Source: an uncultured Clostridia bacterium (lineage in GTDB: Bacteria > Bacillota > Clostridia > Christensenellales > Borkfalkiaceae). From it: 64,000 bases of DNA. The notes under the pieces are model-generated. The model saw only the letters and a program-made list of their open reading frames with translations. It had not been told where the DNA came from and did not search any database. The DNA lies in assembly GCA_944354535.1 (NCBI GenBank), contig CALVPY010000009.1, positions 1,599 to 65,598 on the forward strand, given 5' to 3'. Position numbers and translations under genes: made by a program. Shown piece by piece: positions 3,767 through 48,057 of this stretch; the stretch's first letter is position 1; every line of letters begins with the position of its first letter.

Positions 3767-3958
3767 GCGTGCATTCATCGTGCATGGCGGTGTCGGGCTT
3801 GCGTTTCGCTTCGGGTCATGTATGTCTGAATACACTCCCCTCGCAAAGCCGCGCCCTCCTTGCCCTGCACGCGACTGCCCACTCAAACAAGTTTAAGCGC
3901 GCATTCATCGCGCCATACTTTGTCGCCCTGCGGCAACTTTCATCTTAAGGAGTTCATC

Positions 3959-12878: not shown

Positions 12879-12988
12879 AAAAAGGAAAATATTTTGTCAT
12901 TTCCAAAAATATCTTGATAGAACCTTACAGTTTTTTCTGCTATGATAAGAAAAAAGAGGGGAGCCGTACCTCTCCCGAGGAGAACATC

Positions 12989-18914: not shown

Positions 18915-18935
18915 CGAAAGGAGGGTTTGAAAACT

Positions 18936-21933: not shown

Positions 21934-21944
21934 CACATTTGGCT

Positions 21945-21970
21945 CCTCCTCCCGCTTCGTGCGGGAGGGG
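21945..21970 (+). promoter_or_regulatory. intercistronic stem-loop after the binding-protein gene
   Basis: CCTCCCGC-ttcgt-GCGGGAGG sits 12 nt after the stop. No T tract follows, so it is more likely an mRNA-stabilising or processing hairpin than a full terminator. Confidence 0.4.
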
Positions 21971-21991
21971 AACTTCAAAAAGGAGATCACC

Positions 21992-23983: not shown

Positions 23984-23985
23984 CC

Positions 23986-24026
23986 GTACGCAGGCGGATG
24001 CGGCTCCCTGACGCATCCGCCTGTAC
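23986..24026 (+). promoter_or_regulatory. strong intercistronic stem-loop
   Basis: CAGGCGGATGCG-(9 nt)-CGCATCCGCCTG is a 12-bp perfect stem plus 3 further pairs, immediately after the lipoprotein stop. The T tract is weak. Confidence 0.45.
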
Positions 24027-24046
24027 TTACTTCAAGGAGAGAACAT

Positions 24047-28804: not shown

Positions 28805-29850
28805 TGTATCAAAGCTTCCGCCCCGGCGAGGAGTGGCTGGATACGAACGGCAACCCCATCCAGCCGCACGGCGGTTCGGTGTTCTTTGAAAACGGCACCT
28901 ACTATTGGTACGGCGAAAACAAGCAATTCACCGACGGCAAGAACGGCGTCTGGACGTGGGGCGTCCGCTGCTATTCCTCGCAGGACCTTTACAATTGGAA
29001 AGACGAAGGCCTCATCATCCCGCCCGACGAAAAGGACGAAACTTCGCCTTTGCACCCGACGGCGATGCTCGACCGCCCGCACATCCTCTACAACGGTAAG
29101 ACGAAAAAATACGTCTGCTGGTGCAAGATCATGCAGAAAAACGGCGAGCAGACGGAGACCGTCTTAACTTCCGACCGCCTCTTAGGCCCGTACGCCATCC
29201 AAAAGACGGGTTTCAAGCCCCTCGGCATGAGCGCGGGCGACTTCGACCTCGCCCTCGCCCCCGACGGCAAGGGCTATTACTTCTTCGAGCGCGTGCATTC
29301 GGAGACCATCATCGCCGATCTTACCGACGACTACTGCGATGTGACGGGGTACTATTCGACGCACTTCCCTCACGCGGGCCCGCCCTATGTCAGAGAGGCG
29401 ACCGCCCATTTTATGAGGAACCATAAGCACTATCTTTTGACTTCGGGCACGACGGGCTACTTCCCAAACCCGTCGGAAGCCGCCGTCGCCGAGACCTGGC
29501 ACGGCCCTTATCGTGTGCTCGGCGATCCCCATCGGGGGGATGAGAGCCGCACTTCCTTCCATTCGCAGATCTCCTGCGTCTTCCGCGTGCAGGGCACCGA
29601 TCTATTTATCGCGATGGCAGACAGATGGCTTCCCGGCTGCACCTACGCCTACGAGGACTATAAAAAAGCCTTTGAGCGCCGCTTCATTTGGGGCAAGCCG
29701 CCCCTTCCCGAAGAGGAGAAGTACTTTTCCGACGCCGCCGCAAACACCTCGCGCTCGCGCTACGTCTGGCTCCCCATCCGCTTCGAGGGGGATGCTCCCG
29801 TCATCGAATGGCATGATGAGTGGCGTCTCTCCGACTTCACCTCATTATAG
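28804..29850 (+). CDS. glycoside hydrolase family 43 (paralog of 3959-5014)
   Basis: The ATG at 28804 overlaps the GH78 stop by 1 nt (TGATG). It has WLDTNGNPIQPHGGSVFFENGTYYWYGENK. No signal peptide. Confidence 0.8.
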   Translation: MYQSFRPGEEWLDTNGNPIQPHGGSVFFENGTYYWYGENKQFTDGKNGVWTWGVRCYSSQDLYNWKDEGLIIPPDEKDETSPLHPTAMLDRPHILYNGKTKKYVCWCKIMQKNGEQTETVLTSDRLLGPYAIQKTGFKPLGMSAGDFDLALAPDGKGYYFFERVHSETIIADLTDDYCDVTGYYSTHFPHAGPPYVREATAHFMRNHKHYLLTSGTTGYFPNPSEAAVAETWHGPYRVLGDPHRGDESRTSFHSQISCVFRVQGTDLFIAMADRWLPGCTYAYEDYKKAFERRFIWGKPPLPEEEKYFSDAAANTSRSRYVWLPIRFEGDAPVIEWHDEWRLSDFTSL

Positions 29851-29919
29851 CCTCCTCTTCGGGGAGGTGTCGCGGCATCCGAAGCTTGCTTCAGTGCCGT
29901 GACGGAGGGAGTAAATTCC
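29851..29919 (+). repeat. composite hairpin (REP-like) intergenic element, copy A
   Basis: It consists of CCTCCtcttcgGGGAGG, then CCGAAGCttGCTTCAG, then GTGACGGAGGGAGTAA. It is ~80% identical over ~68 nt to 36780-36848. Confidence 0.6.
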
Positions 29920-30000
29920 ATTCTTTCTGCCTCGTCTCGGGCGCGACTGCTTTCCAAATATCACATCTCCCGACTTCATTTTAAGGTATCCACATATCCC

Positions 30001-33738: not shown

Positions 33739-33767
33739 TTGACAATTCCCCCGCATTTTGCTAAAAT
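33739..33767 (+). promoter_or_regulatory. sigma-70-type promoter P1 (inside duplicated cassette 33703-33784)
   Basis: TTGACA (33739-33744), 17 nt, TAAAAT (33762-33767), with extended -10 TGC. Confidence 0.65.
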
Positions 33768-33831
33768 GATGAAAAATATACTGCCCGCCCGTCGCCCCGC
33801 GGCGCAAGAAAAAACCGTCAAGGAGGTTTCC

Positions 33832-35634
33832 ATGAAATACATTTCAGTCCCGCTCGATCTCGAGTACCGTTATTCCTTTATCCGCCGCGACGGCCGCATC
33901 ACGCTGAGCCGTGAAGCCGCCGATCCTTCCGCCGTGTTCTGGCGCGGGAAGTACTACATCTTCCCCTCTATGAGCAAGGGCTGCTATGTGAGCGAAGACC
34001 TTTCACATTGGGAGTTTCTTTCCCTCAAGGGCCTTCCCTTCTATGATTATGCGCCCGACGTGTGCGTACACGGGGAATATCTCTATCTCTGCGCCTCCAA
34101 ACGCGATGCCGTCTGCAATTTCTATCGCAGCAAGACCTTCCCCGAAGGGGAGTTTGAAGAGATCGAGGGCAGCTTCCCCTTTTGGGATCCCAACCTCTTC
34201 TTCGATGACGACGGAAAAGTGTACCTCTTTTGGGGGTGTTCCAATCTGACCCCCGTCTACGGCGTGGAGCTCGACGAAAATACCATGCGCCCCAAGGGGG
34301 AGCCGGCCGTGCTTCTCGAGGGCAGGCATCGCGTCATCGGCTACGAGCGCCTCGGCGAAGATCACTTCTTCGACCCCGAAACGAGCGCCACCCTGAAAAT
34401 GCTCAAAGACAAGCTCTCCCCGATGCTGAAAAAGCCCGCCTCCGAGCTGACCAAAGAGGACGTGATGAAGACGCTGCCGCCCGAACAGCAGGAAGTCTTG
34501 AAAAAGATACTTTTGGACAGCCCCTACATGGAGGGCGCTTGGATGACCAAATACAAGGGGAAGTATTATCTCCAATACGCCGCCCCCGGCACCGAGTTCA
34601 ACATTTATGGCGACGGCGTCTATGTCGCCGATTCGCCTCTCGGGCCCTATACGCTCGCGGAGAACGCGCCCTATTCCTATCACCCGGGCGGCTTTATTAC
34701 GGGCGCAGGTCACGGCAGCACCTTCCGCGGAGAGGGCGCGCTCTGGCACACGTCCACCGCGCGCATTTCGCGCACGCATTTCTTCGAACGCCGCCTCGGG
34801 CTCTGGAAGGCGGGATTCGATGAGGACGACGAGCTTTACTGCGATCAGCGCTTCGGCGATTGGGTACACGCCGTGGAGGACGCTCCCTTCAAAGCGCCCC
34901 GCTGGATGCTCCTTTCCTATCAGAAGCCCTGCACCGTCTCTTCCTCGCCCGAGGATGCAAAGAACATCACCGACGAAAACATCCGCACCCTCTGGCAGTC
35001 TGAGGAGCGGAAAGGCACCGTCATCCTCGATCTTGAAAAGGTCTGCACGGTGCATGCCGTGCAGCTCAACTTCGGCGACAATTTCGGCTCCGTCTCCCTT
35101 CCTTCGCGCGGCGAAGAGGAGATGAAGGCACACGGCCGCTACATCGACGACGAGAAGTTCCCGCTCCGCTGGTATCTCGAATATTCCGAGGACGGCGCCC
35201 AATGGCAGATGTGGGAGGACCACCGCTCGGCAGAGGACGACCGCGCGCATCCGCTCCTCGTCAACGAGGAGGGCATCTCACTCCGCTATCTGCGCCTCAC
35301 CGTCACCGAGATGCCCTACGGCCAGAATGCCTGTGTCTCGGGCATCCGCGTGTTCGGCGTTTCCGACTGTCCCGCGCCCGCGCCTGCAAGCAATGTCAGG
35401 CTCTCGCTCGAAGAGGACGGCGAAGGCTTCTTTGCCGAATGGCAGGGGAACGCCGTGGGCTACAACGTCCTCTGGGGACACGCGCCCGAAAAGCTCTATC
35501 ATTGTTATCAGGTGTTAGGAACGACCACGGCAAACGTCCGCGCCCTCGTCAAGGGTCGGCCGTGCTATGTGCGCATCGACGCCTTCGGCGAAGGCGGCGT
35601 CACGGAAGGGGAGACGCTCTGCCTGGTTCCCTGA
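33832..35634 (+). CDS. glycoside hydrolase family 43 with C-terminal discoidin (F5/8 type C, CBM32-like) domain
   Basis: AAGGAGG lies 6 nt before the ATG at 33832. The N-terminal half is a five-bladed propeller type (AADPSAVFWRGKYYIFPS, FWDPNLFFDDDGKVYLFWG). The region NITDENIRTLWQSEE...VHAVQLNF is discoidin-like. No signal peptide. Confidence 0.8.
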   Translation: MKYISVPLDLEYRYSFIRRDGRITLSREAADPSAVFWRGKYYIFPSMSKGCYVSEDLSHWEFLSLKGLPFYDYAPDVCVHGEYLYLCASKRDAVCNFYRSKTFPEGEFEEIEGSFPFWDPNLFFDDDGKVYLFWGCSNLTPVYGVELDENTMRPKGEPAVLLEGRHRVIGYERLGEDHFFDPETSATLKMLKDKLSPMLKKPASELTKEDVMKTLPPEQQEVLKKILLDSPYMEGAWMTKYKGKYYLQYAAPGTEFNIYGDGVYVADSPLGPYTLAENAPYSYHPGGFITGAGHGSTFRGEGALWHTSTARISRTHFFERRLGLWKAGFDEDDELYCDQRFGDWVHAVEDAPFKAPRWMLLSYQKPCTVSSSPEDAKNITDENIRTLWQSEERKGTVILDLEKVCTVHAVQLNFGDNFGSVSLPSRGEEEMKAHGRYIDDEKFPLRWYLEYSEDGAQWQMWEDHRSAEDDRAHPLLVNEEGISLRYLRLTVTEMPYGQNACVSGIRVFGVSDCPAPAPASNVRLSLEEDGEGFFAEWQGNAVGYNVLWGHAPEKLYHCYQVLGTTTANVRALVKGRPCYVRIDAFGEGGVTEGETLCLVP

Positions 35635-35722: not shown

Positions 35723-36703
35723 ATGAACGTTGTCACCATCGGCGAACTCATGCTGCGGCTCACCCCGCCCCGCCACGAACGCTTCGTGCAGGCAGAAAGC
35801 TTCGAAGCCGTCTACGGCGGGGGAGAGGCCAATACTGCAGTCAGTCTTTCCTGTCTCGGCGATCAGGCAGTCTTTGTCACCAAACTTCCCGCGCACGCCG
35901 TCGGACAGGCGGCGGTGGACGCCCTCCGCCGCTACGGGGTGGATACCCGCCACATCGTCCGCGGGGGCGAGCGCATCGGCATCTATTTCATGGAGCGCGG
36001 GGCAGACCGCCGCCCCTCGGATATCATCTACGACCGCGCCCATTCCGCCTTTGCGGAGAGCTCGGAAGAAGAGTACGACTGGTCCGCGATCTTTGCGCAT
36101 GCCGATTGGCTGCATTTGACGGGCATCACGCCCGCCCTCGGCAAGAGCGCGGCTGCTCTCGCCCTCCGCGCCATCCACGAGGCAAAGAAGCGGAATATCC
36201 CCGTCTCCTTCGACGTCAACTACCGCGCCAAACTCTGGAGCGAGGAAGAAGCCCGCCCCGTCTTAACGTCTTTTGCGGCGCTTTCCGACGTCATCATCAC
36301 CAACGTCACGCAGGCGAAGGAGCTTTTCCTTCTCGAAGGGGGGGACGACGAAGCCCTCGCCGCCGCGGTCAGGGAGAAGTACGGCTGCAAAAAGGTTGCC
36401 TTCACCTTCCGCCGCACGCTGAACGCGGAGCGCAACGTCATTTCGGCGGCGCTCTTCGACGGCGAAGCGCTCTTCCGCGCCCCCGAGTACGAGATGCACA
36501 TGATCGACCGCATCGGCGGGGGAGACGCCTTCTCGGCGGGGCTCATCCACGCCCTCGGCAAGGGCATGAAGGCAGAAGAGGCGGTGTGCTTTGCGGAGGC
36601 TGCAAGCTGCTTAAAGCACAGTGTCGAAGGGGATATGAACCTCGTCACGGAAGGAGAGGTATTATCTCTCATGCACAGCTCCTCCCCCCGCGTCTTGCGC
36701 TAA
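35723..36703 (+). CDS. kdgK: 2-dehydro-3-deoxygluconokinase (PfkB family)
   Basis: The start MNVVTIGELMLRLTPP is KdgK-like, and GGGEANTAV is present. The PfkB C-terminal signature is DRIGGGDAFSAGLIHAL. Confidence 0.85.
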   Translation: MNVVTIGELMLRLTPPRHERFVQAESFEAVYGGGEANTAVSLSCLGDQAVFVTKLPAHAVGQAAVDALRRYGVDTRHIVRGGERIGIYFMERGADRRPSDIIYDRAHSAFAESSEEEYDWSAIFAHADWLHLTGITPALGKSAAALALRAIHEAKKRNIPVSFDVNYRAKLWSEEEARPVLTSFAALSDVIITNVTQAKELFLLEGGDDEALAAAVREKYGCKKVAFTFRRTLNAERNVISAALFDGEALFRAPEYEMHMIDRIGGGDAFSAGLIHALGKGMKAEEAVCFAEAASCLKHSVEGDMNLVTEGEVLSLMHSSSPRVLR

Positions 36704-36925: not shown

Positions 36926-37027
36926 TAGAAAGCAAGGAATACGATACCGCGTTCCTCTCCACCGCGCAAGACGGTGTCTTGCCGAATGCAAGCCGAAAAG
37001 AGCAAACACATCGAAAAGGTGTATCCC

Positions 37028-39268
37028 ATGATCATCACACTCAACGACAATTGGACTTTCTTCAAAGACACGGCGGCGCCCGCCGCCAACAAAGCGCAGT
37101 CGCCCGCCCAAGTCTCGGCGCAGACAGGCGAAAAAGTCACCCTTCCCCACACCTGGAACGCCATCGACGGCCAGGACGGCGGCAGCGATTATTTCCGCGG
37201 CGAATGCACCTACACCCGCCCGCTTCCCGCCCTCACCCTCAAAGAGGACGAGGAAGCACACCTCTGCTTTTACGGCGTCTCGCAGACGGCGGAAGTCTTC
37301 ATAAGCGGCGAACTTGTCACCCGTCACGAGGGCGGCTATTCCCGCTTCTATGCCGACGTCACCCGCTTCTTCCGCACGGGCGGCTTCATGGAGCTCACCG
37401 TCCGCGTCAGTAACGCCGTCTCCGACCGCGTCTACCCGCAGGCGGCGGATTTCACCTTCTTCGGCGGCATCTATCGGAGCGTCGGGCTCCTCATCGTCCG
37501 CAGATCTCACTTCGATCTCACGGCGATGGGCGGCGGCGTCAAAATTACGCCCAAAGAGCACGAGGGCGCGTGGAACGTCGAACTCACACCTTTCGTCACC
37601 CACGCCGAAGACCTTCTCATCTCCTGGCGCATCCTCGACGGCGCGAAGGAGATCGCCGGGAAGGAGTCGCCCGCCGCGCAGACGGTCAACATCGCGATCC
37701 CCGATCCCATCCTTTGGCAGGGCGTCGACGATCCCCATCTCTATACCCTCGAAGCCGTCCTTCTCTCTCCAGAAGGCAAACCGCTCGATACCTTTTCGGC
37801 GCGCTTCGGCCTCCGCACCTTTTCTGTCGATCCCGAACGCGGCTTCTTCCTCAACGGCAAGAGCTATCCCTTGCGCGGCGTCTCCCGCCATCAGGACCGC
37901 GAGAACATGGGCTACGCCGTCACGCGCAGGGAGCACGAAGAGGATATCGCCCTCATCCGCGAGCTGGGCGCCAATTCCGTGCGCCTTGCCCACTATCAGC
38001 ACGACGACTACTTCTATTCCCTCTGCGACGAGGCGGGTCTCATCGTCTGGGCGGAAGTTCCCTATATCACGATGGAGCTCAGCGACGGGCACGAGAACAT
38101 CCTCTCGCAGTTCCGCGAGCTCATCACGCAGAATTATAACCACACCTGCATCGTCTGCTGGGGCCTCTCCAACGAGATCACTCTAAAAGGCGTCACCGAC
38201 GGCATCATTCAAACGCACGCCGCCTTGAAAGCGATCAAAGAAGAGCTCGATCCTTATCGCCCTTCGACGATGGCGCACATCAGTATGCTCCCGCCCGATT
38301 CTCCCTTCGTGGAGACGGCGGATATCTGCGCATGGAACCTCTACTTCGGCTGGTACGAGGGTAACGTCTCTCAGTACAAGCCCTGGCTCGACGCATTCCA
38401 CGCCTCGCATCCCCGCCTTCCCTTCGGCCTTTCGGAATACGGCGCAGACGCCCTCGTCGCCTATCAGTCGCCTAAGCCCGCCGTCGGCGATTATTCGGAG
38501 AGCTATCAGGAATATTATCACGAGAAACTTTTGGAACAGATCGAGAAGATGCCATACCTTTGGTGCACTTACGTCTGGAACATGTTCGACTTCGCCGCCG
38601 ACGCGCGCGAGGAGGCGGGCGATCCCGGCAAGAACCACAAGGGGCTTGTAACTTACGACCGCAAGATAAAAAAGGACGCCTTCTACGTCTACAAGGCGCG
38701 CTGGAGCCGCGAACCCTTCGTCCACCTTGCCGGCAGCCGCTACGTTTATCGCCACGAAGCGACGACGAGCATCCGCGTCTACACCAACCTTCCCAAAGTC
38801 GCGCTCTATGTCGATCAAAAGCTGTTCGCGGAACAAGAGGGGAGATACCTCTTTTCCTTCGAAGTGCCTATCTCGGGCAGGCATCTGATCGAAGCGCGCG
38901 CAGAGGGCTGCTCCGATACGATCGCGATCGAGCACGTCGAAGCTCCGTATGAGGGCTACCGCTGCAAGGCGAAGGAAGGGGCGGTCAATTGGCTCGACGG
39001 CTGCTCGGAAGAGGGCTTTGTCGTCACCGACCGCATCGGCGACATCCTCGCCGTTCCCGAAGGCAAAGAGTTTTTGGATGCCTTCTTTACGTACATCATC
39101 GAAAAGCGCCGCAAGACGGGCGCGCCCGTCCGCGAGCTGAGCGAGGAGCTCATCGAAGGCATGACGGATCACTCCGTCGAGCGGATCTTCAACATGGCGG
39201 GCGATCTTCTCTCCGAACGCGAGCAGATCCACATCGTCCGCGCCCTCAATCGTGTGAAAAAGCCTTAA
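37028..39268 (+). CDS. glycoside hydrolase family 2, beta-glucuronidase-like (NxK motif present)
   Basis: The start MIITLNDNWTFF is typical of GH2. Acid/base context is WGLSNEIT and nucleophile context LSEYGADAL. YVWNMFDFAAD...GKNHKGLVTYDRK mirrors E. coli GUS WNFADF...GNKKGIFTRDRK. The N-H-K motif is encoded at 38633-38641. Confidence 0.8.
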   Translation: MIITLNDNWTFFKDTAAPAANKAQSPAQVSAQTGEKVTLPHTWNAIDGQDGGSDYFRGECTYTRPLPALTLKEDEEAHLCFYGVSQTAEVFISGELVTRHEGGYSRFYADVTRFFRTGGFMELTVRVSNAVSDRVYPQAADFTFFGGIYRSVGLLIVRRSHFDLTAMGGGVKITPKEHEGAWNVELTPFVTHAEDLLISWRILDGAKEIAGKESPAAQTVNIAIPDPILWQGVDDPHLYTLEAVLLSPEGKPLDTFSARFGLRTFSVDPERGFFLNGKSYPLRGVSRHQDRENMGYAVTRREHEEDIALIRELGANSVRLAHYQHDDYFYSLCDEAGLIVWAEVPYITMELSDGHENILSQFRELITQNYNHTCIVCWGLSNEITLKGVTDGIIQTHAALKAIKEELDPYRPSTMAHISMLPPDSPFVETADICAWNLYFGWYEGNVSQYKPWLDAFHASHPRLPFGLSEYGADALVAYQSPKPAVGDYSESYQEYYHEKLLEQIEKMPYLWCTYVWNMFDFAADAREEAGDPGKNHKGLVTYDRKIKKDAFYVYKARWSREPFVHLAGSRYVYRHEATTSIRVYTNLPKVALYVDQKLFAEQEGRYLFSFEVPISGRHLIEARAEGCSDTIAIEHVEAPYEGYRCKAKEGAVNWLDGCSEEGFVVTDRIGDILAVPEGKEFLDAFFTYIIEKRRKTGAPVRELSEELIEGMTDHSVERIFNMAGDLLSEREQIHIVRALNRVKKP

Positions 39269-39369: not shown

Positions 39370-39987
39370 ATGAATATCGAAACGCTGTTCAACGGCAGGA
39401 AGATCATCCCCGTCGTTACAATAGAACGAATGGAAGACTGTGAACACATCTTCGGCGGCCTTTCGGACGGCGGTCTTCTCGCCGCTGAGGTGTGCTTTCG
39501 GACGGAGTGCGCCGAAGAGGCCATCCGCTATGCGAGAAAGACTTACCCTAAGATGCTCGTGGGGGCGGGAACGGTCATCGACGGCGGGCAGTGCCGCAGG
39601 GCGCTCGGCGCTGGGGCGCAGTTCATCGTCTCTCCCGGGCTCTCCGAGGATGTCGCGCTGCTTTCGGCGCAGGCGGATGTGCCGTACCTTCCCGGTACGG
39701 TGACGCCCACGGGCATCATGCGCGCCTTAGCGCTCGGCATCGACCGCATCAAATTTTTCCCCGCCTGCAACTTCGGCGGCCTTGCGGGCATCAAGTCGCT
39801 CTCGGCGGCGTTTCCGCAGGTCAGATTCATGCCGACGGGCGGCGTCGATCAGGAAAATTTAGCAGATTATCTTGCTTACCCCAAGATCTTCGCCTGTGGC
39901 GGCACCTGGATGACCCGCGGCTCGAGGGAGGAAATTGCGCAGAGATCGCGCGACGCCTTAGCGCTCGCGTCGAGGGGGAAAGCGTAA
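39370..39987 (+). CDS. eda: KDPG / KHG aldolase, second paralog
   Basis: It is ~60% identical by eye to 7408-8028, with VCFRTECAEEAI, GAGTV, IKFFPA and PTGGV. Confidence 0.85.
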   Translation: MNIETLFNGRKIIPVVTIERMEDCEHIFGGLSDGGLLAAEVCFRTECAEEAIRYARKTYPKMLVGAGTVIDGGQCRRALGAGAQFIVSPGLSEDVALLSAQADVPYLPGTVTPTGIMRALALGIDRIKFFPACNFGGLAGIKSLSAAFPQVRFMPTGGVDQENLADYLAYPKIFACGGTWMTRGSREEIAQRSRDALALASRGKA

Positions 39988-40052: not shown

Positions 40053-40077
40053 AAAAGGAGCCTTAGGGCTCCTTTTT
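40053..40077. terminator. bidirectional terminator between eda2 (+) and LacI regulator (-)
   Basis: AAAAGGAGCC-tta-GGGCTCCTTTTT has A and T tracts on both sides. Confidence 0.6.
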
Positions 40078-41087
40078 CATGCCGAGGCGCGGCGGATGAG
40101 TACGGTGCCGATCTCGATCTTGACGGGCGGGGTATGCCCGTCTTTTATTTTTTCAAGCAGGCGCTTTGCGGCGGCGCGGCCCATCTCCTGTTTGGGAACG
40201 CGCACCGTCGTGAGCGTGGGCGAAGTGTATCCGCAGAGGGGGATATCGTCGAACCCGACGACGGCAATATCCTGCGGGATGCGCTTCCCCCGCTCGGTGA
40301 ACGCCCGCATGGCGCCCGCCGCAATGAGGTCGTTGTCGGCAAAATAGCAGCGGGCAAGCGGTTCGCCGCGGTCTAAAAGTTCGAGCATATCCGAATACGC
40401 CCCTTCGGCGGAGGGCGTCAGATGATGTACGATGCTGCGCGAGGGGGAGAGCCCGCATTTGCGGATCGCCTTGTAAAATCCGTCGGCGCGTTCCGAAAAG
40501 TTGTTGATGGGGTAGGCGGAGCGCAGATACCCCGCCTGCGTGCGGTACTTGGAAATGAGATAGTTCGCGGCAAGATATGCGCCCTGCACGTTGTTGATGA
40601 GCACGCTGTCATAGGACGCGCCCTCGAAGTAGGTATCGAGCAGCACGAAGGGGAAGGGGAGGTTTTGGATGAGCGTAAGATCGTCCTCGCTCATCTCGGT
40701 GCCGAGGATGACGGCCCCCGCGCAGCCCTCCTTCTTTGCAGATTCGAGCATGGCGCGGCTGTCCTCTTCATAGAGATAGCGCACAATGAGCCGATATTCG
40801 CTCCCCCTCGTCTCCGCCTCGATGCCCTGGGTGAGCTCCGAAAAGAAGGGGGTGTCGGCGACCACGGCGCCGTGTTTTTTGTAGATGAGGAAGAGGAGGT
40901 TCCCCTCCGCGTGTTCGCGTTCGAATTGCTTTTCCTTGATGCGGGAAAAGTCGTACCCGTACTCCCTTGCGGCCGCAAGCACGCGCTCGCGCGTTGCGTC
41001 GCTGACGCCCGGTCTGCCGTTGAGCGCCATCGAGACGGCTGCCTCCGAAAGGCCGAGCAGTTTGGAAAGTTCTTTGGCTGTGATCAT
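40077..41087 (-). CDS. LacI-family transcriptional regulator
   Basis: AGGAGA lies 7 nt before the ATG at 41087. The HTH is MITAKELSKLLGLSEAAVSMALNGRPGVSDATRERVLAAAREYGY. A periplasmic-binding-fold sugar sensor domain follows. Confidence 0.85.
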   Translation of the reverse strand: MITAKELSKLLGLSEAAVSMALNGRPGVSDATRERVLAAAREYGYDFSRIKEKQFEREHAEGNLLFLIYKKHGAVVADTPFFSELTQGIEAETRGSEYRLIVRYLYEEDSRAMLESAKKEGCAGAVILGTEMSEDDLTLIQNLPFPFVLLDTYFEGASYDSVLINNVQGAYLAANYLISKYRTQAGYLRSAYPINNFSERADGFYKAIRKCGLSPSRSIVHHLTPSAEGAYSDMLELLDRGEPLARCYFADNDLIAAGAMRAFTERGKRIPQDIAVVGFDDIPLCGYTSPTLTTVRVPKQEMGRAAAKRLLEKIKDGHTPPVKIEIGTVLIRRASA

Positions 41088-41224
41088 GATCGCGTCTCCT
41101 GCGCAAGTTTTCGGGATATATTTTAGCAAATTAAGCAAATTAAGTCAAGGAATGAACTGAATGTATCTTGAAATTTAGTAAATTCTGTTCTAAAATTAAG
41201 AAAAACAAATCAAGGGGGCTTTTT

Positions 41225-42691
41225 ATGACCGTAAAACAGTATGATCTCATCGAATTTTCCGCAGGGGATGCGCCGCTTGCCGCCGAGTTTTTCCTGGGAG
41301 ACGAGCGCATTTGCCCGGAGTGCTTCTTAAAGGGAGAGGGCGAGTATGCCGTACGCTTTATGCCGCATCGCCCCGGCGAGTGGCGCTATCGCATCGGGGA
41401 AAGGGAGGGGAGCTTTGTCTGCGTTCCCGATGAGAGCGTACACGGGCGCGTGCAGGCGAAAGGAACGCATTTTTGCTATGAGGACGGCACGCCATTCTAT
41501 CCCTTCGGCACGACATGCTATGCCTGGACGAGCCAGGAGGATGAGCTCATCGAAGAGACGCTCGCGACGCTCAAAACGGCGCCCTTCAACAAGCTCCGTA
41601 TGTGTATTTTCCCCAAGAGTATGCCGTACAATCAGAACGAGCCGCCCTATTTCCCCTTTGAAAAGGACGAAACGGGGGAGTGGGATATGCAAAGGCCGGA
41701 CTTCCGCTATTGGGATCGCCTCGACCGCTGCCTCTCGGCGCTTCGGGAGATGAACATCGAGGCGGACATCATCCTCTTTCATCCCTATGACCGCTGGGGC
41801 TTTTCCGCTCTCGGCATGGAGAAAAATTTGCAGTATCTTCGGTATGCCGTCGCCCGCCTTTCCGCTTACCGCAACGTGTGGTGGAGCCTTGCCAACGAGT
41901 ACGAGATGGTCTCGGCGATCTCTATGGAAGGCTGGGATACGATCGGACGCTTTATCGCAAAGAAGGATGCCTTTCATCATCTCATCGGCATACACGATTG
42001 GGTCAACCCTTTCCCCCGGAAGGAGTGGCTGACGCACGCCTCCATTCAGAGCGGCGAGGTGCGGTTGGTCGCCGCATGGAAAAGGGAGTACGGCATTCCC
42101 GTCGTCATCGATGAGTTCGGATACGAGGGAGATATTCCGTTTTCCTGGGGGAATTTGTCCGCATTTGAATTTATGGACCGCGCCTGGAGCATCGCCGCGG
42201 TCGGCGGCTATGTGACGCACGGCGAGACCTTCCACCGCGAGGACGAAGTCTTATGGTGGGCGAAGGGCGGCAAACTCTACGGCAAGGCGCCCGAACGTTT
42301 TGCTTATCTTAGGAGCATTATCGAGGAAGTCGGGGCGCTGGAACCCTTGAAAGGGCAGGCGATCGATCCCAACGGCACCGGGTTCATGGCATTGCTCGCC
42401 AAGATCGCGGAAGGGTTTTCCGATCGCTCCAAGCTGATGCTCGAGATGTCCTCCGCCGAATTTTTCGGCCGCAACGAGGGTCACAGAGTGTACTATTTCG
42501 GCCGTCAGTGTATGCGTTTCTTTGAAGCGGAGCTCCCCGAAGAGGGCGAGTACCGCGTGGAAGTCATCGATATCCGGGAGATGACGCGGAGAACGGCATT
42601 TGAGGCTGCCCGCGGCAAGGTGCGTATTGAACTTCCCGCAAAAGAGGGCATGGCGCTCCTCGTCACCCGCTTAAAGGGAGAGGCGCTTTGA
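41225..42691 (+). CDS. putative glycoside hydrolase, DUF5060 + DUF4038 (apiosidase-like, GH140-related) architecture
   Basis: RBS AAGGGGG precedes the ATG at 41225. An N-terminal Ig-like segment is followed by a TIM-barrel-like core: GTHFCYEDGTPFYPFGTTCYAW, NKLRMCIFPK, WWSLANEYE, VVIDEFGYEG. The family call is from memory of DUF4038-type proteins and is not verified. Confidence 0.55.
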   Translation: MTVKQYDLIEFSAGDAPLAAEFFLGDERICPECFLKGEGEYAVRFMPHRPGEWRYRIGEREGSFVCVPDESVHGRVQAKGTHFCYEDGTPFYPFGTTCYAWTSQEDELIEETLATLKTAPFNKLRMCIFPKSMPYNQNEPPYFPFEKDETGEWDMQRPDFRYWDRLDRCLSALREMNIEADIILFHPYDRWGFSALGMEKNLQYLRYAVARLSAYRNVWWSLANEYEMVSAISMEGWDTIGRFIAKKDAFHHLIGIHDWVNPFPRKEWLTHASIQSGEVRLVAAWKREYGIPVVIDEFGYEGDIPFSWGNLSAFEFMDRAWSIAAVGGYVTHGETFHREDEVLWWAKGGKLYGKAPERFAYLRSIIEEVGALEPLKGQAIDPNGTGFMALLAKIAEGFSDRSKLMLEMSSAEFFGRNEGHRVYYFGRQCMRFFEAELPEEGEYRVEVIDIREMTRRTAFEAARGKVRIELPAKEGMALLVTRLKGEAL

Positions 42692-42706
42692 TGAAAGGAG
42701 AGTGCA

Positions 42707-44107
42707 ATGGATAAGATCGTTTTGGGATTTGCGCCGACGAGGCGGAGCATTTTTTCCGCGCCCGCGGCGGTGGAGTATGCAAACTACACGCGCGGGAAGC
42801 TGCGCGCAATGGGCGTGGAGTTCGTCGATATCGACGATATTTCTTCGGACGGGCTGCTGCACGACGACAATGGCCGCGTGAAGATCGCCGCAAAATTCAA
42901 GGCGGCGGGGGTGGACGGATTATTCTTCCCGCACACCAACTTCGGCACGGAGTATGAAGTCGCCCGCCTCGCAAAAGAGATGGGGCTTCCCGTGCTCCTT
43001 TGGGGCCCGCGCGACGAGCGCCCCGACGAGAACGGCGTGCGCCTTCGTGACAGCCAATGCGGGCTCTTTGCCACGGGCAAGGTGCTGCGCCGCTTCCGCG
43101 TTCCCTTTACCTATCTTTGCAACTGTAATTTGGAGGACGAAGCCTTTGAGCGGGGCGTGAAGCTCTTCCTCGCCGTCTGCAATACGGTGAAAGCCTTCCG
43201 AAAGACGCGTATCTTGCAGATCGGGCCCCGCCCCTTCGATTTCTGGTCGACGATGTGCAACGAGGGGGAGCTTTTAGAAAAGTTCAACATCCAGCTTGCG
43301 CCCGTGCCGCTTCCCGAACTCACCGCCGAGATGAAGAAGGTGAAGGGGGACAAGGAACAGCTTGCAAAGATCGTCGCCTTCTGCCGCGAACAGTTCAAAA
43401 TTTCCGTTTCGGAGGAACAGCTCGAAACTATCGCCGCGCTCAAGGGCGCCATGCGGAATTTGGCGGAAAAATACGGCTGCAATGCGGGCTGCATCCAATG
43501 CTGGAATGCGCTTCAGGATGAGATCGGCATCATGCCGTGCGCCGCGAACAGCCTTTTGAACGAAGAGGGCTTCCCCGTCGCCTGCGAGACGGACATCCAC
43601 GGGGCGATCACATCTGTTTTGGTGGAAGCCGCGGGCATGGGCGTGAAGCGCTCTTTCTTTGCCGACTGGACGGTGCGCCACCCCGACAACGAGAACGGGG
43701 AGCTCTTGCAGCACTGCGGGCCGTGGCCGTCTTCCTGCCTACAGTGCAAGCCCGAGATCTGCTATCCGCTCGCCTTCGACTATCCCGGCGCGGTGGCGGG
43801 CGAAGCCAAGCACGGCACGATGACGCTCGCCCGCTTTGACGGCGACAACGGCGAATATTCGCTGCTCCTCGGCAACGCGAAAGGCATCGACGGGCCGTAC
43901 ACGAAGGGTACCTATGTGTGGGTGGAAGTCAGGAACTGGAAGCGGCTGGAAGCGAAGATCGTCGAAGGCCCGTATATCCATCACTGCGTGGGCATCCACG
44001 AAGACGTCGTGCCCGTCCTCTACGAGGCGTGCAAGTATCTGGGCATCAAGCCCGATCTCTATGACGACGTCGAAGAAGACGTGAAGGCATATATCCGAGG
44101 GGAATGA
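42707..44107 (+). CDS. L-fucose/L-arabinose isomerase-family protein (short ~466-aa form)
   Basis: RBS AAAGGAGAG. It starts MDKIVLGFAPTRR. The metal/catalytic context is FPVACETDIHGAITS, and the C-terminal GPYIHHCVGIHEDV is typical of the FucI-like family. Confidence 0.7.
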   Translation: MDKIVLGFAPTRRSIFSAPAAVEYANYTRGKLRAMGVEFVDIDDISSDGLLHDDNGRVKIAAKFKAAGVDGLFFPHTNFGTEYEVARLAKEMGLPVLLWGPRDERPDENGVRLRDSQCGLFATGKVLRRFRVPFTYLCNCNLEDEAFERGVKLFLAVCNTVKAFRKTRILQIGPRPFDFWSTMCNEGELLEKFNIQLAPVPLPELTAEMKKVKGDKEQLAKIVAFCREQFKISVSEEQLETIAALKGAMRNLAEKYGCNAGCIQCWNALQDEIGIMPCAANSLLNEEGFPVACETDIHGAITSVLVEAAGMGVKRSFFADWTVRHPDNENGELLQHCGPWPSSCLQCKPEICYPLAFDYPGAVAGEAKHGTMTLARFDGDNGEYSLLLGNAKGIDGPYTKGTYVWVEVRNWKRLEAKIVEGPYIHHCVGIHEDVVPVLYEACKYLGIKPDLYDDVEEDVKAYIRGE

Positions 44108-44108
44108 G

Positions 44109-44927
44109 ATGGACGAACTTACAAAAAAATCTTACAGGCTTCGCCGTATCGTCATCGAGGCGGTGTATCGTTCCTCGTCGGGGCATATCGGGGGCGATCT
44201 GTCCGTCGTCGATATTCTGAACGTACTGTATAACAAAGTCATGAACGTTTCGCCCGAGAAGGCGCACGATGCAGACCGCGACCGCTTCATTTTGAGCAAG
44301 GCGCACTGTGCGGACTGCCTGTATGCGGTGCTGGGCGACAAGGAGTATTTCGGCCTTGACGAGTACCTCAACACCTTTGAACGCTTTCAGAGCCGCTTTA
44401 TCGGGCATACGAATACTGCCATCCCCGGCGTGGAGATGAACGGCGGCTCTTTGGGGCACGGGCTCGCGGTGGGCGTCGGCATGGCGCTCGCGGCGAAAAT
44501 GGATAAAAGAAGCTACCGCACCTACGTCGTCCTCGGCGACGGCGAGATGGCGGAGGGCAGTAACTACGAGGCGATGATGGCGGCGGCGCAGTATGGCTTG
44601 GACAATCTCTGTGCGACCGTCGATTGCAACGGTCTGCAAATTTCGGGCACGACGAAGGAAGTCATGAACAGCGCGCCGCTCGGCGAGAAGTTCAAGGCGT
44701 TCGGCTGGAATGTCGTTGAAGTCATGGACGGAAATAACTGCGAAGAGCTTATTGCGGCCTACGAGGCGGCAAAGAGCTGCAAGGGAAAGCCCACGGCAGT
44801 CATCGCGCATACGGTGAAGGGGAAAGGGGTCTCCTTCATGGAGAACAACGCAAAGTGGCATCACGGCGTGATGAGCGCCGAGCAGTACGAGCGCGCGGTG
44901 CGCGAATTGGAGGCAAAGTATGAATAA
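44109..44927 (+). CDS. transketolase, N-terminal (TPP-binding) subunit
   Basis: It has SSGHIGGDLSVVDILNVLY, the TPP motif VLGDGEMAEGSNYEAMM, and HTVKGKGVSFMEN. It starts 1 nt after the isomerase stop. Confidence 0.9.
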   Translation: MDELTKKSYRLRRIVIEAVYRSSSGHIGGDLSVVDILNVLYNKVMNVSPEKAHDADRDRFILSKAHCADCLYAVLGDKEYFGLDEYLNTFERFQSRFIGHTNTAIPGVEMNGGSLGHGLAVGVGMALAAKMDKRSYRTYVVLGDGEMAEGSNYEAMMAAAQYGLDNLCATVDCNGLQISGTTKEVMNSAPLGEKFKAFGWNVVEVMDGNNCEELIAAYEAAKSCKGKPTAVIAHTVKGKGVSFMENNAKWHHGVMSAEQYERAVRELEAKYE

Positions 44928-45846
44928 AGTGACCAACCGCCAAGTCATCTGCGATACGCTGCTTGCGGCGGCGAAGGAAGATAAGGACATTATCGTCGCC
45001 TGTTCCGATTCGCGCGGCTCCGGCTCGATGACGGCATTTTTTGAGCAGTATCCCGCCCAAAGCGTGGAAGTGGGCATTGCGGAGCAGGATCTCGTCTCTA
45101 TTTCGGCGGGGCTTGCGGCGTGCGGGAAGAAGGTGTTTGCCGTCTCGCCCGCCTGCTTCCTTTCCACCCGCTCCTATGAGCAGGCGAAAGTGGATGTCGC
45201 CTATGCGGAGACCAACGTCACGCTCGTCGGCATTTCGGGCGGTATCTCCTACGGGGCGCTCGGTATGACGCACCATTCGCTGCAGGACATTGCAGCAATG
45301 GCGGCCCTGCCCGGGATGCGCGTCTATCTTCCTTCCGACCGCTTCCAAACGAAAGCGATCGTCGAGGAGCTGCTGAAAGATAAAAAGCCCGCCTACATCC
45401 GCGTTTCGCGCAGCGCGAGCGAAGATATTTACGAGGAAAATACCCACTTTGCGGGCGGCGCGAAGGTGCTGAAAGCAGGGAAGGATGTGCTGTTTGTTGC
45501 CTGCGGCGAACTCGTTGCTCCCTGCCTGCACGCGGCGGAGCGTTTGGAAGGAGAGGGTATTTCGGCGGGCGTCGTTGATGCCTACCGCGTCAAGCCGCTC
45601 AATGAGGAAGTCATTCTGAAGGCGGCATCGGGCGTGAAAGTTGTGATCACCGCCGAGGAGCATTCGCCCTACGGGGGGCTCGGCAGTATGGTCGCGCAGA
45701 TGATCTCCGCTCATTGCCCCAAGAAGGTGGTGGGGCTTTCGCTGCCCGACGGGCACATCGTCACGGGCACGCAGGCGGAGGCCTTTCAGTATTACGGCCT
45801 GACTGCCGAGGGCATTGCGGCAAAGGCAAAGGAAGCGCTGCAATGA
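44920..45846 (+). CDS. transketolase, C-terminal (pyrimidine-binding) subunit
   Basis: It has an 8-nt overlap with the N-subunit. Motifs are EVGIAEQDLVSISAGLA and GGISYGALGMTHHSLQDIA. Confidence 0.9.
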   Translation: MNKVTNRQVICDTLLAAAKEDKDIIVACSDSRGSGSMTAFFEQYPAQSVEVGIAEQDLVSISAGLAACGKKVFAVSPACFLSTRSYEQAKVDVAYAETNVTLVGISGGISYGALGMTHHSLQDIAAMAALPGMRVYLPSDRFQTKAIVEELLKDKKPAYIRVSRSASEDIYEENTHFAGGAKVLKAGKDVLFVACGELVAPCLHAAERLEGEGISAGVVDAYRVKPLNEEVILKAASGVKVVITAEEHSPYGGLGSMVAQMISAHCPKKVVGLSLPDGHIVTGTQAEAFQYYGLTAEGIAAKAKEALQ

Positions 45847-47258
45847 AGTGTGTTCTTGCCATCGACCAGAGCACGCAGGGCACGAAGGCGCTTCTTCTCG
45901 ACGAAGAGGGGCGGGTGATCGCGCGCGCCGCAAGGCCGCACAGGCAGATCGTCGACGGGCGGGGCTATATCTCCCATGACCTCAATGAGATCTGGCGCAA
46001 CGTGCTCCTCGCGGCGCGGGAGTGCGTGGGGGAGCGGGCTGCAAGCGTGAAAGCGGTCGGCATCTCCAATCAACGGGAGACGAGTTGTGTATGGAATGAT
46101 GAGGGGCCGCTTGCGGATGCCGTCGTCTGGCAATGTGCACGCGCGAAGGATATTTCCGACTCCCTCGCTCCGTATGCGGAATTTGTACGCGGGAGGACAG
46201 GACTGCCCCTCTCGCCCTATTTCCCCGCCGCGAAGTACGCGTGGCTGCTTCGGAATACGGAGAATAGCGGGAAGGTACGCCTCGGCACGATCGACAGCTT
46301 TCTCGTATGGAAGCTGACGGGGAACTTTTATACCGACTACTCCAACGCCTCGCGCACGCAGCTCTTCGATCTTCATACGCTGCAATGGGATGAGGAGCTG
46401 TGCCGCCTCTTCGGCGTGAATATGGCGTCGCTGCCCGAGGTCAAAGACAGCGACGGCGTGTTCGGCATGACGGATATGGGCGGGCTGTTCCCCGAAAGGG
46501 TGCCCGTCTGCGGCGTTCTGGGCGATTCGCACGCCGCCCTCTTTGCCGAAGGGTGCCTTGCGGCGGGGCAGCTCAAAGTGACCTACGGCACGGGGAGCTC
46601 CGTGATGATGAACGTGGGCGAAAAGCCCGTTGGGAGCCGCCACGGGCTTGCCTCATCGCTCGCCTGGAAGCGGAAGGGGAAAGTCAGCTACGTTTTGGAA
46701 GGGAATATTAATTATTCCTGCGCCGTCATCACCTGGCTGAAAGACGATCTGGGGCTCATTTCCGATGCGAAAGAGGTAGGCGCACTTGCGGCGGAGGCAA
46801 ACGAGCGGGATGAGACGGTGCTCATCCCCGCCTTTTCGGGGCTCTCCGCACCCTATTGGAAACCCGAGGCGAAGGCGGCGATCCTCAATATGACCCGCAC
46901 GACGGGGAAAAAGGAGCTTTGCCGTGCGGCAGAGGAGAGCATCGCCTTTCAGATCGCCGACATCGTGGACGCACTGCGCGCTGATACGGGGTCGGAAATT
47001 TCCGAATTGCGCGCGGACGGCGGGGCGGCGGGGGATGCCTTCCTCATGCAGCTGCAGGCGGATGCTTCGGGGGCAAACGTGCTTGCTTCCTGCGAGCGCG
47101 AGCTCTCGCCCCTCGGAGCAGGATATTTGGCAGGCATCTCGGCGGGGGTGTACGGGGAGGACGTCCTCAAAAAGCGCACCCTCTGCTATGAGCCGCGGGA
47201 AAACGAGCGTGTGGCGGCCGCCCGCGCCCGCTTTCAAAAATGTTTGAAGCTGTTATAG
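45843..47258 (+). CDS. FGGY-family carbohydrate kinase (glycerol/xylulose-kinase-like)
   Basis: An ATGA overlap joins it to the transketolase C-subunit stop. It starts MKCVLAIDQSTQGTKALLLDEEG. It has ISNQRETSCVW and GVLGDSHAALF. Confidence 0.85.
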   Translation: MKCVLAIDQSTQGTKALLLDEEGRVIARAARPHRQIVDGRGYISHDLNEIWRNVLLAARECVGERAASVKAVGISNQRETSCVWNDEGPLADAVVWQCARAKDISDSLAPYAEFVRGRTGLPLSPYFPAAKYAWLLRNTENSGKVRLGTIDSFLVWKLTGNFYTDYSNASRTQLFDLHTLQWDEELCRLFGVNMASLPEVKDSDGVFGMTDMGGLFPERVPVCGVLGDSHAALFAEGCLAAGQLKVTYGTGSSVMMNVGEKPVGSRHGLASSLAWKRKGKVSYVLEGNINYSCAVITWLKDDLGLISDAKEVGALAAEANERDETVLIPAFSGLSAPYWKPEAKAAILNMTRTTGKKELCRAAEESIAFQIADIVDALRADTGSEISELRADGGAAGDAFLMQLQADASGANVLASCERELSPLGAGYLAGISAGVYGEDVLKKRTLCYEPRENERVAAARARFQKCLKLL

Positions 47259-47263
47259 GAAGG

Positions 47264-47288
47264 AAAGCCCGCACACGCGGGCTTTTTT
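47264..47288 (+). terminator. rho-independent terminator ending the transketolase operon
   Basis: AAAGCCCGC-acac-GCGGGCTTTTTT. Confidence 0.7.
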
Positions 47289-47385
47289 CTAATAAAAAAG
47301 AAACAATTTTGCAACATATCAAACAGATATGCAAGACAAGGCGGCTGCTTTGTGCTATAATAGAGAAAATGTTTGGAGGTGAAAG

Positions 47386-48057
47386 ATGGACGAACAAGCA
47401 GTCAAGCAATTCAGAGACTACATGATCGAGGCGGGGCGGCGCGACCGTGAACAGAAGTACGAGAAATATCGCCGCCTCAACAAGTTCTGCGAAAAGGGGC
47501 AGATCTTGTTCACGGGCTCTTCGCTCATGGAGTATTTCCCCGTCGTGGAGATGACGGAAGGACTGGCCAAGAAGAAGGTCTATAACCGCGGGGTGGGGGG
47601 CTCGACATCTTTTGAGTTCCTCGATCATATCGACGCGGTGCTCTTTGATTTGGAGCCGAGCGTTGTCTTTCTCAATATCGGCACCAACGATCTGAGCAGG
47701 CCCGACTATTCGCACGAGGGTTTGAAGGAGCGGTACCGCTCTATTTTCACGCAGATCGGAAAGCGGCTGCCCGAAGCAAAGGTGTATTTTATGGCGTTCT
47801 ATCCTATGAACGAGGCGAAAATGCCGCACCCGATGGCGTTCGGGCTGCGCACGAACGAGCTCACAACGGAAGCCAACGCCGCCGTGAAGGAAGTGTGCGC
47901 GGAGTTCCCGTTTGTGGAGTATCTTGACTGCAACGAGGGGCTCAAAGACGAGGCGGGGAAGCTCAAAGAGGAGTTTGCGATCGACGGCGTGCATATGTGG
48001 CCTGAGGCGTATGCGCTCGTTCTGGAAGCGCTCAAGCCCTGTCTGGAGGCGCTGTGA
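47386..48057 (+). CDS. SGNH/GDSL-family hydrolase (esterase)
   Basis: SGNH blocks are present: I FTGSSLM, II GVGGSTS, III IGTNDL, V DGVHM. Confidence 0.8.
   Translation: MDEQAVKQFRDYMIEAGRRDREQKYEKYRRLNKFCEKGQILFTGSSLMEYFPVVEMTEGLAKKKVYNRGVGGSTSFEFLDHIDAVLFDLEPSVVFLNIGTNDLSRPDYSHEGLKERYRSIFTQIGKRLPEAKVYFMAFYPMNEAKMPHPMAFGLRTNELTTEANAAVKEVCAEFPFVEYLDCNEGLKDEAGKLKEEFAIDGVHMWPEAYALVLEALKPCLEAL

Follow-up and report, generated by a model that had tools for sequence, protein, structure and literature searches.

A LacI-flanked operon joining a glycosidase to an isomerase, a split transketolase and a kinase in an uncultured Clostridia bacterium: a probable D-apiose catabolic unit

The 64,000-nt stretch of DNA analysed here (the window; positions 1,599 to 65,598 of contig CALVPY010000009.1, GenBank assembly GCA_944354535.1) comes from an uncultured Clostridia bacterium of the Borkfalkiaceae and carries a compact operon of five co-directional genes at 41225–47258, which probably serves the catabolism of D-apiose. 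All on the + strand, the operon comprises a glycosidase gene (41225–42691; ATG at 41225 after AAGGGGG) whose product combines DUF5060, a PF13204-like TIM barrel and DUF5605, a gene for a short aldose–ketose isomerase of the FucI/AraA superfamily (42707–44107), genes for the N subunit (thiamine diphosphate (ThDP)-binding; 44109–44927) and the C subunit (pyrimidine-binding; 44920–45846) of an Apt-type transketolase, and a GlpK-like FGGY kinase gene (45843–47258). The 15 nt between the glycosidase and isomerase genes contain the ribosome-binding site AAAGGAGAG, and the junctions further downstream consist of a 1-nt gap, an 8-nt overlap between the two transketolase genes and an ATGA overlap between the C subunit and kinase genes. 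An intrinsic terminator (47264–47288, + strand) closes the operon and was read directly from the sequence as GCCCGC-ACAC-GCGGGC followed by TTTTTT; a pattern scan did not list it, though its 4-base loop lies within the 3–8 range of that scan. On the other side, a LacI/GalR-family regulator gene is oriented divergently (40077–41087, − strand; stop at 40077 and likely ATG at 41087 after GGAGA, with the longest open reading frame (ORF) starting at TTG 41138); its product matches the LacI helix-turn-helix (PF00356), Peripla_BP_1 (PF00532) and Peripla_BP_3 (PF13377) models, and the interval 41088–41224, assigned to no strand, is a divergent promoter and candidate operator region. The operon boundaries, spacings, divergent regulator and terminator given in a first-pass annotation all held on re-reading, and its domain readings of the LacI protein, the glycosidase, the isomerase, the transketolase subunits and the FGGY kinase were supported by Pfam. 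Its statement that the operon lacks an aldolase or epimerase was likewise borne out: none is found among the operon genes, and a 2-keto-3-deoxy-6-phosphogluconate (KDPG) aldolase at 39370–39987 was assigned to a neighbouring uronate unit.

The transketolase subunits are recognised by Transketolase_N (165.7 bits) in the N subunit and by Transket_pyr and Transketolase_C in the C subunit, and they share 45% identity with AptA and 37% with AptB of Escherichia coli, respectively. AptAB is the split transketolase of the D-apiose transketolase pathway ApsI–AplK–AptAB, a MetaCyc pathway (PWY-8089) that was reportedly described by Carter et al. in Nat Chem Biol in 2018. Canonical transketolases read (S/T)H-G-x-x-x-GEDG-x-SHQ at a site where the C subunit in the window reads IS-GGISYGALGMTHH, within the motif SYGxLxxTHH, with Ser106 at the canonical His position and Leu114 at the canonical Asp position. 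This pair presumably corresponds to H461/D469 of the E. coli enzyme, the human counterpart H416/D424 being taken from the alignment. Ser or Asn stands at the His position and Leu at the Asp position in five Apt-type sequences (E. coli, Rahnella, Chondrinema, Rhizobium and Caballeronia), with a Tyr four residues before the His position (SYG/AYG), and SYGxLxxxHH occurs in all 66 of the 66 C-subunit homologues from the conserved gene cassette described below. In the N subunit, the sequence WHH (H251-H252) places His252 where canonical enzymes have a Gly after the catalytic His (WHG), and N111 was also noted; WHH is common to all Apt-type sequences and to 61 of 61 cassette homologues. The Carboxydothermus hydrogenoformans and human transketolases keep the canonical His/Asp and the HG motif, and four split transketolase-like proteins taken from non-apiose contexts as controls do not share the SYGxLxxTHH/WHH motif pair, the Solidesulfovibrio one being canonical and those of Pantoea, Streptomyces and Paenibacillus each deviating in a different way. 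LGHG was also considered as an Apt signature and rejected, being present in the same three deviating proteins. Because the canonical His and Asp are replaced and WHH stands for WHG, a housekeeping role is judged from these residues to be excluded for the pair, in agreement with the dedicated enzyme that the first-pass annotation had proposed. The loss of an Asp that reads the C4/C2 hydroxyl would fit a donor with a tertiary carbinol at C3, from which dihydroxyacetone phosphate would be the leaving fragment.

The kinase is recognised by FGGY_N/C in Pfam. It scores 459 bits on the GlpK models and Rahnella AplK scores 476, both under the curated cut-off of 590, and it reads GDSHAALF and GTGSS, as AplK does, where GlpK reads GDQQAA and GTGxF. 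The changed motifs are, as we take them, glycerol-pocket or glycerol-contact positions of GlpK. On the fuculokinase model it reaches only 43.6 bits against a cut-off of 470.9, and the protein is predicted to be a D-apulose 4-kinase.

The isomerase (466 aa) is matched by Fucose_iso_C at 30.2 bits and is shorter than FucI (about 590 aa). Among NCBIfam models, the sulfoquinovose isomerase (SftI) matches it best, with 100 bits where the cut-off is 700, and the isomerase of the Rahnella apiose cluster matches the same model in the same range (100–117 bits for the two). It resembles SftI as a short FucI-like aldose–ketose isomerase; the low score, the lack of sulfonate-handling genes and the presence of a kinase set it apart. 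An isomerase of this kind is likewise paired with a dedicated split transketolase in the sulfo-transketolase pathway, which is not known to include a kinase. Judging from its gene context, the window isomerase is predicted to convert D-apiose to D-apulose.

The four genes from isomerase to kinase form a widespread cassette. Among 80 genome loci retrieved with the window isomerase, the order isomerase–N subunit–C subunit–kinase is kept in about 75, usually with a divergent LacI gene, and a divergent LacI orthologue (44–85% identity, tblastn) was located in 58; the arrangement is not due to chance, being repeated in about 75 of 80 independent loci. The nearest genome locus belongs to Candidatus Gallimonas intestinavium, of a chicken-gut Clostridia lineage (isomerase 98% identical), and the isomerase remains 70–80% identical across Lachnospiraceae, Listeria and Monoglobus. 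Neighbour clustering identified three PF13204 glycosidase subfamilies as the most frequent partners of the cassette, found in at least 31 loci in all: the window type (20 loci), a 419-aa type scoring 286 bits (10 loci) and a DUF5060–PF13204 type scoring 205 bits (7 loci). The 419-aa subfamily (c7) matches PDB 8t9w, labelled 'Apiosidase' (4.5e-34), and BT1012 (5msy/3kzs). GH78 rhamnosidases (9 loci), a beta-glucoside phosphotransferase system (PTS) with a BglG antiterminator (10 loci) and an Abhydrolase_10 protein (6 loci) also recur in its neighbourhood. The side chains of rhamnogalacturonan II (RG-II) are anchored as Rha-alpha1,3-Api-beta1,2-GalA and need both a rhamnosidase and an apiosidase (bioRxiv 10.64898/2026.03.13.711244), and the association of GH78 with the cassette fits for this reason.

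Two annotated examples come from cultured organisms. Monoglobus pectinilyticus, which we take to be a pectin specialist, has the LacI, isomerase, transketolase and kinase genes together with a DUF5060 glycosidase (36% identical to that of the window) and an SGNH hydrolase. In Listeria monocytogenes, lmo1030-1036 (L083; NZ_LR134403.1, 4004-13086) encodes the LacI regulator, an isomerase 70% identical to that of the window, both transketolase subunits and the kinase in the same order as here; it differs by adding a beta-glucoside PTS IIBCA, and its glycosidase is a true DUF4038 (GH140-like) enzyme and not one of the 4N0R type. Its products carry the public names 'fucose isomerase', 'transketolase', 'glycerol kinase' and 'DUF4038'. 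Published work has treated this operon only as a lineage I/II marker (PMC2996996) or as a virulence candidate: lmo1034 ('GlpK2') is reported not to be strongly induced by glycerol (PMC4536003), and a mutant in the transketolase C subunit (LMOf2365_1054) reportedly showed reduced adhesion and virulence (PMC6783856); no sugar is assigned to the operon in the papers searched. Our literature searches found no paper assigning the Bacillota cassette, and the 2018 founding paper on apiose may already mention Bacillota clusters. The combination of glycosidase and pathway, which the first-pass annotation had thought would be a new arrangement for a Gram-positive organism, is thus instead common in Bacillota. 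The same cassette was also seen on three contigs binned as Bacteroides or Tidjanibacter (L024, L034 and L063), with isomerases 76–79% identical to the Clostridia type, which is probably explained by mis-binning, or possibly by lateral transfer.

The glycosidase matches PF13204 (Apiosidase-like, DUF4038) at 55.4 bits against a cut-off of 26.5, over profile positions 3–258 of 320, in addition to DUF5060 and DUF5605. A phmmer search of the PDB returned 4n0r, which we take to be BVU_0362 of Phocaeicola vulgatus, as its sole solved relative (E 1.1e-83, residues 15–369); the GH140-type structures 5msy/3kzs and 8t9w were not matched in this search. At the profile level, hhalign links the window subfamily to two true PF13204 subfamilies with probabilities of 99.6% and 96.7%, and a GH-A type catalytic Glu pair could be placed at E225 (LANEYE) and E297 (IDEFGYE). 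The structure 4N0R is unpublished and likely represents a distinct family distantly related to GH140 (bioRxiv 10.64898/2026.05.19.726164). Of the earlier reading of the first gene as a GH140-type enzyme, the DUF4038 match therefore stands and the family assignment does not, the protein belonging to the orphan 4N0R type. Compared with the GH140 enzyme BT1012 of Bacteroides thetaiotaomicron (PDB 5MSY/3KZS) and with 8T9W, it has in common PF13204, the GH-A TIM barrel, the positions of the catalytic Glu residues and the predicted substrate class; it differs in that the homology is at the profile level only, in its extra DUF5060 and DUF5605 and in its predicted location, BT1012 being periplasmic and the window enzyme predicted to be cytoplasmic. 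No signal-peptide-like hydrophobic stretch was seen on inspection of its N-terminus by eye, and it should therefore act on imported glycosides. 4N0R itself is a direct homologue deposited as a 'putative glycoside hydrolase', and the window gene differs from it by lying inside a catabolic operon, which suggests a substrate. We regard a role in the processing of apiose-containing plant glycosides as more probable than an apiosidase proper; for a beta-D-apiosidase, we would put the chances at about even.

The D-apiose clusters already known provide the closest comparison. Growth on D-apiose has been shown for cluster-positive strains of E. coli and E. fergusonii, and such clusters have been found in E. 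coli ST131/ST1193 and in Pectobacterium (PMC13001218); searching E. coli genomes at the DNA level with the transketolase genes gave no match, and the E. coli cluster was reached through the locus tags given for strain SE15 in the same paper. In Rahnella aquatilis, the cluster consists of genes for a solute-binding protein (SBP), DUF2291, an ATP-binding cassette (ABC) transporter, a regulator, AptA (79% identical to that of E. coli), AptB, a 'fucose isomerase' (472 aa; Fucose_iso_C 110 bits) and a kinase, and a plasmid of Chondrinema (Bacteroidota) has an equal gene set. NCBIfam match patterns are alike for the window and Rahnella proteins. The Apt-type clusters of E. coli SE15 (L001), Rhizobium (L088) and Caballeronia (L089) contain genes for dehydrogenases of the short-chain dehydrogenase/reductase (SDR) family, including the GolD/DthD type, and no isomerase, with the transketolase signature still present. 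These SDR-bearing clusters agree with the proposal of the J Bacteriol authors that an oxidoreductase pair replaces ApsI (PMC13001218).

The function best supported for the operon is the catabolism of D-apiose by an isomerase, a kinase and a split transketolase, and it is favoured because Apt-type active-site signatures occur together with a repeated adjacency to apiosidase-family glycosidases. We estimate a probability of roughly 70% that the operon is a LacI-repressed unit for the use of D-apiose from imported plant apiosides, such as RG-II stubs or apiosyl-glucosides like apiin. The glycoside would be brought in by a transporter encoded elsewhere, and the cytoplasmic 4N0R-type glycosidase may then release D-apiose, with the even chance given above. 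The FucI-like isomerase would convert D-apiose to D-apulose, and the GlpK-like kinase, to judge from its AplK-type substitutions, would phosphorylate the latter to D-apulose-4-phosphate. Finally, the split ThDP enzyme, with its AptAB-type replacements, would move C1–C2 to glyceraldehyde-3-phosphate and yield xylulose-5-phosphate and dihydroxyacetone phosphate. An aldolase would not be needed, since the tertiary carbinol at C3 of apulose makes the leaving fragment a ketone.

The cassette follows the known apiose transketolase pathway in its chemistry and in three out of four enzyme types. Both systems pack the isomerase (short and FucI-like), the FGGY kinase (GlpK-like) and the split ThDP transketolase into one operon, with the same active-site replacements in transketolase and kinase and the same aldolase-free chemistry. 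They differ in the isomerase, which comes from another FucI-like lineage (26% identity, against 37–45% for the other three proteins), in the integrated cytoplasmic glycosidase of an orphan family, in the anaerobic Bacillota host and in the use of LacI (sometimes with a PTS) instead of an SBP/ABC system, the regulator of the E. coli and Rahnella clusters being a 'sugar-binding transcriptional regulator'. Of the apiose pathway put forward by the first-pass annotation, the signatures and the apiosidase-family neighbours thus speak in favour, while the isomerase is not an ApsI orthologue and the glycosidase is not GH140 proper.

Several findings, which concern transport, the glycosidase, the isomerase and the remaining cassette proteins in turn, weigh against D-apiose as the substrate or against the first gene as its source. 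The E. coli, Rahnella, Chondrinema and Caballeronia clusters have a D-apiose-binding SBP/DUF2291/ABC transporter, which the window operon and most Bacillota loci lack, and the operon contains no transporter gene at all; some Bacillota loci have a beta-glucoside PTS instead. As for the glycosidase, no activity was detected for three expressed 4N0R homologues in a screen directed at marine polysaccharides (bioRxiv 10.64898/2026.05.19.726164), and only about 3 of 62 metagenomic homologues of the window enzyme (39–52% identity) adjoin cassette genes, their commonest neighbours being GH3, GH78, AraC or histidine-kinase regulators and ABC permeases. These data would also be explained if the pathway does degrade apiose and the first gene removes some other residue on or near it, with free apiose or an apioside being supplied by other enzymes or by cross-feeding. 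The missing phmmer similarity to characterised GH140 structures points the same way, as does the fact that about 60% of the cassette loci showed no PF13204 gene within the retrieved flanks. A source for such cross-feeding is conceivable, since D-apiose accumulates in the supernatants of wild-type B. thetaiotaomicron during RG-II degradation and is lost in a BT1012 mutant (bioRxiv 10.64898/2026.03.13.711244). Against this possibility, the window-type glycosidase occupies the GH140-like position in 20 genome loci, in Monoglobus and in four metagenome loci, and its gene in the window is packed translationally against the isomerase gene, 15 nt apart. Moreover, a termite-gut contig (L131; Ga0209755_10061748, 3.8 kb) holds a kinase gene, an ApsI-type isomerase gene (44% identical to that of Rahnella) and a window-type glycosidase gene (51% identical to that of the window), and the glycosidase type therefore occurs with both isomerase lineages. 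We consider a role of the first gene away from apiose release to be rather unlikely.

The isomerase and the protein in the ApsI position of Rahnella share only 26% identity (E 2e-40). An exhaustive search of 1.8 billion representatives gave 247 sequences at E <= 1e-30, and the full-length relatives in that search range from 28% to 48% identity. Those closer to the window isomerase than ApsI (40–48%) sit in unrelated gene contexts. One of 47% stands alone among envelope genes, one of 48% is accompanied by AP_endonuc_2 and LacI genes and an ABC system, one of 41% by URO-D, an FGGY kinase and a further FucI-like gene, and one of 43% by GatZ; a slightly more distant relative (39%) lies with a class II aldolase, PfkB and KduI. 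In a neighbour-joining tree, the ApsI-type proteins form a separate and more distant clade. A plasmid collection had suggested ApsI as the nearest relative of the window isomerase, and this was overturned by the exhaustive search and the gene contexts. Because of the 26% identity, the separate clade and the closer subfamilies elsewhere, the window isomerase is, as far as its sequence tells, a non-orthologous counterpart of ApsI within the FucI-like superfamily. The non-orthologous replacement that the first-pass annotation had raised conditionally applies only in this restricted sense, and the fold is not replaced, the Rahnella isomerase being FucI-like as well.

These relationships leave some room for the alternative that the cassette degrades another rare or branched sugar by the same isomerase–kinase–transketolase logic after its release by PF13204-type glycosidases. 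It would accord with the different FucI-like subfamily of the window isomerase, and another FucI-like subfamily (41% identity; P0146, on an ENA ERZ1426830 contig) is encoded directly after a different split transketolase pair, which argues that isomerase–transketolase modules are not restricted to one substrate. A family remotely related to GH140 includes a beta-agarase (bioRxiv 10.64898/2026.05.19.726164), and the fold is thus not limited to apiosides. The transketolase and kinase replacements, however, match the Apt and Apl enzymes specifically, the loss of the Asp suits a donor with a tertiary C3, and apiosidase is the label of the solved structures closest to the co-located c7 glycosidases. 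We know of no other natural sugar that needs tertiary-C3 transketolase chemistry, and another sugar as the substrate appears distinctly improbable. The context of P0146 also holds AP_endonuc_2, GFO_IDH_MocA, aldo-keto reductase and DUF4867 genes, and resembles a second, uncharacterised transketolase-dependent sugar pathway.

Overall similarity in the remaining proteins is less favourable to the D-apiose reading than their active sites, and the Apt signature motifs were derived in this analysis from a small comparison set and not taken from a published definition. The split transketolase of C. hydrogenoformans (242 bits; taken as canonical) is closer to the N subunit than AptA is, and the kinase is 42–43% identical to GlpK against 37–38% to AplK (38% for E. 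coli AplK), with a star-like neighbour-joining tree. AptA is itself 47–49% identical to many rhizobial split transketolases, which is about equal to its identity with the window N subunit, and in view of these three cases percent identity was rejected as an orthology test; active-site positions appear more informative than overall identity for assigning the pathway. That the genes instead encode a pathway of the L-fucose or D-arabinose type, or a glycerol kinase and a housekeeping split transketolase that merely adjoin, is hardly credible: the public names of the homologues and the 459 bits on the GlpK model would suggest it, but that score stays under its cut-off and the presumed glycerol-pocket residues are changed, the transketolase lacks the canonical His and Asp, the FucI/FucK/FucA route is not matched by a 466-aa isomerase with a 30-bit Fucose_iso_C hit, by a weak fuculokinase score or by any class II aldolase, the four genes travel as one LacI-controlled unit over many taxa, and the Listeria kinase is reportedly not strongly glycerol-induced.

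The region between the divergent genes contains promoter-like sites on the + strand (41168–41196) and on the − strand (41148–41120). A tandem AAATTAAG(T) motif at 41130–41145 overlaps the −35 box of the LacI promoter, and a third copy lies at 41195–41200. The AAATTAAG(T) 7-mers occur in 26–29 of 44 homologous LacI-operon intergenic regions, against about 4 in shuffles, and the motif, which is shared among many taxa, is a candidate operator. The palindrome ACTTAATATTAAGT is present in some homologous loci; a palindromic LacI operator was rejected for the window, where the intergenic region yielded only direct AAATTAAG repeats and no inverted repeat. Control of the operon by LacI is plausible.

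D-apiose is found in pectin, namely in RG-II and apiogalacturonan, and in plant apiosides such as apiin, and to our knowledge its consumers in the gut are poorly mapped. The cassette in the window belongs to a widespread and large group of un-annotated cassettes. If the D-apiose reading is true, many Lachnospiraceae, Monoglobus, chicken-gut Clostridia and Listeria would be D-apiose consumers, and the Listeria operon, whose transketolase mutant was reported as attenuated (PMC6783856), would gain a metabolic reading. We further propose, tentatively and at slightly less than even odds, that the 4N0R family holds intracellular beta-D-apiosidases and that the Bacillota cassette, including lmo1030-1036 of Listeria, serves apioside utilisation with an isomerase recruited independently of ApsI. 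If so, the 4N0R glycosidase family, for which the gene context offers a concrete substrate to try, would have its first activity, thousands of genes now named 'glycerol kinase' or 'transketolase' would be re-annotated, and apiose could be cross-fed from Bacteroides degrading RG-II to gut Clostridia.

The operon lies in a dense plant-glycan degradation island, with genes for two GH78 rhamnosidases, four GH43, two GH3 and one GH2 enzymes, for UxaC/UxuA/KdgK/Eda and for ABC permeases. The glycan and uronate genes of this island are located at 133–2007, 3860–5014, 5049–7411, 13991–16369, 26102–28804, 28801–29850, 29899–32463, 33739–35634, 35723–36703, 36974–39268 and 39370–39987, and this setting is consistent with the use of pectin side chains. 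Directly past the terminator, a GDSL/SGNH hydrolase gene (47386–48057, + strand) is preceded by a promoter-like site at 47333–47361. It was considered as a conserved operon member and rejected, its product being only 24% identical to that of the SGNH gene which in Monoglobus directly follows the DUF5060 glycosidase gene; it may be an unrelated neighbour or encode a deacetylase that acts on acetylated apiosides or fragments of RG-II. An ORF at 12323–13978 (+ strand) resembles inosine-uridine nucleoside hydrolase and Sde182; its family also adjoins the cassette in five other loci (L005, L013, L014, L051 and L075), and the product may act as a furanosidase-like enzyme. Three large ORFs at 19942–26050 (+ strand; 663, 699 and 667 aa) are essentially without Pfam matches and adjoin ABC permease genes (17841–19907) and an AraC regulator gene (16468–17706), and they may encode unusual solute-binding or surface glycan-binding proteins.

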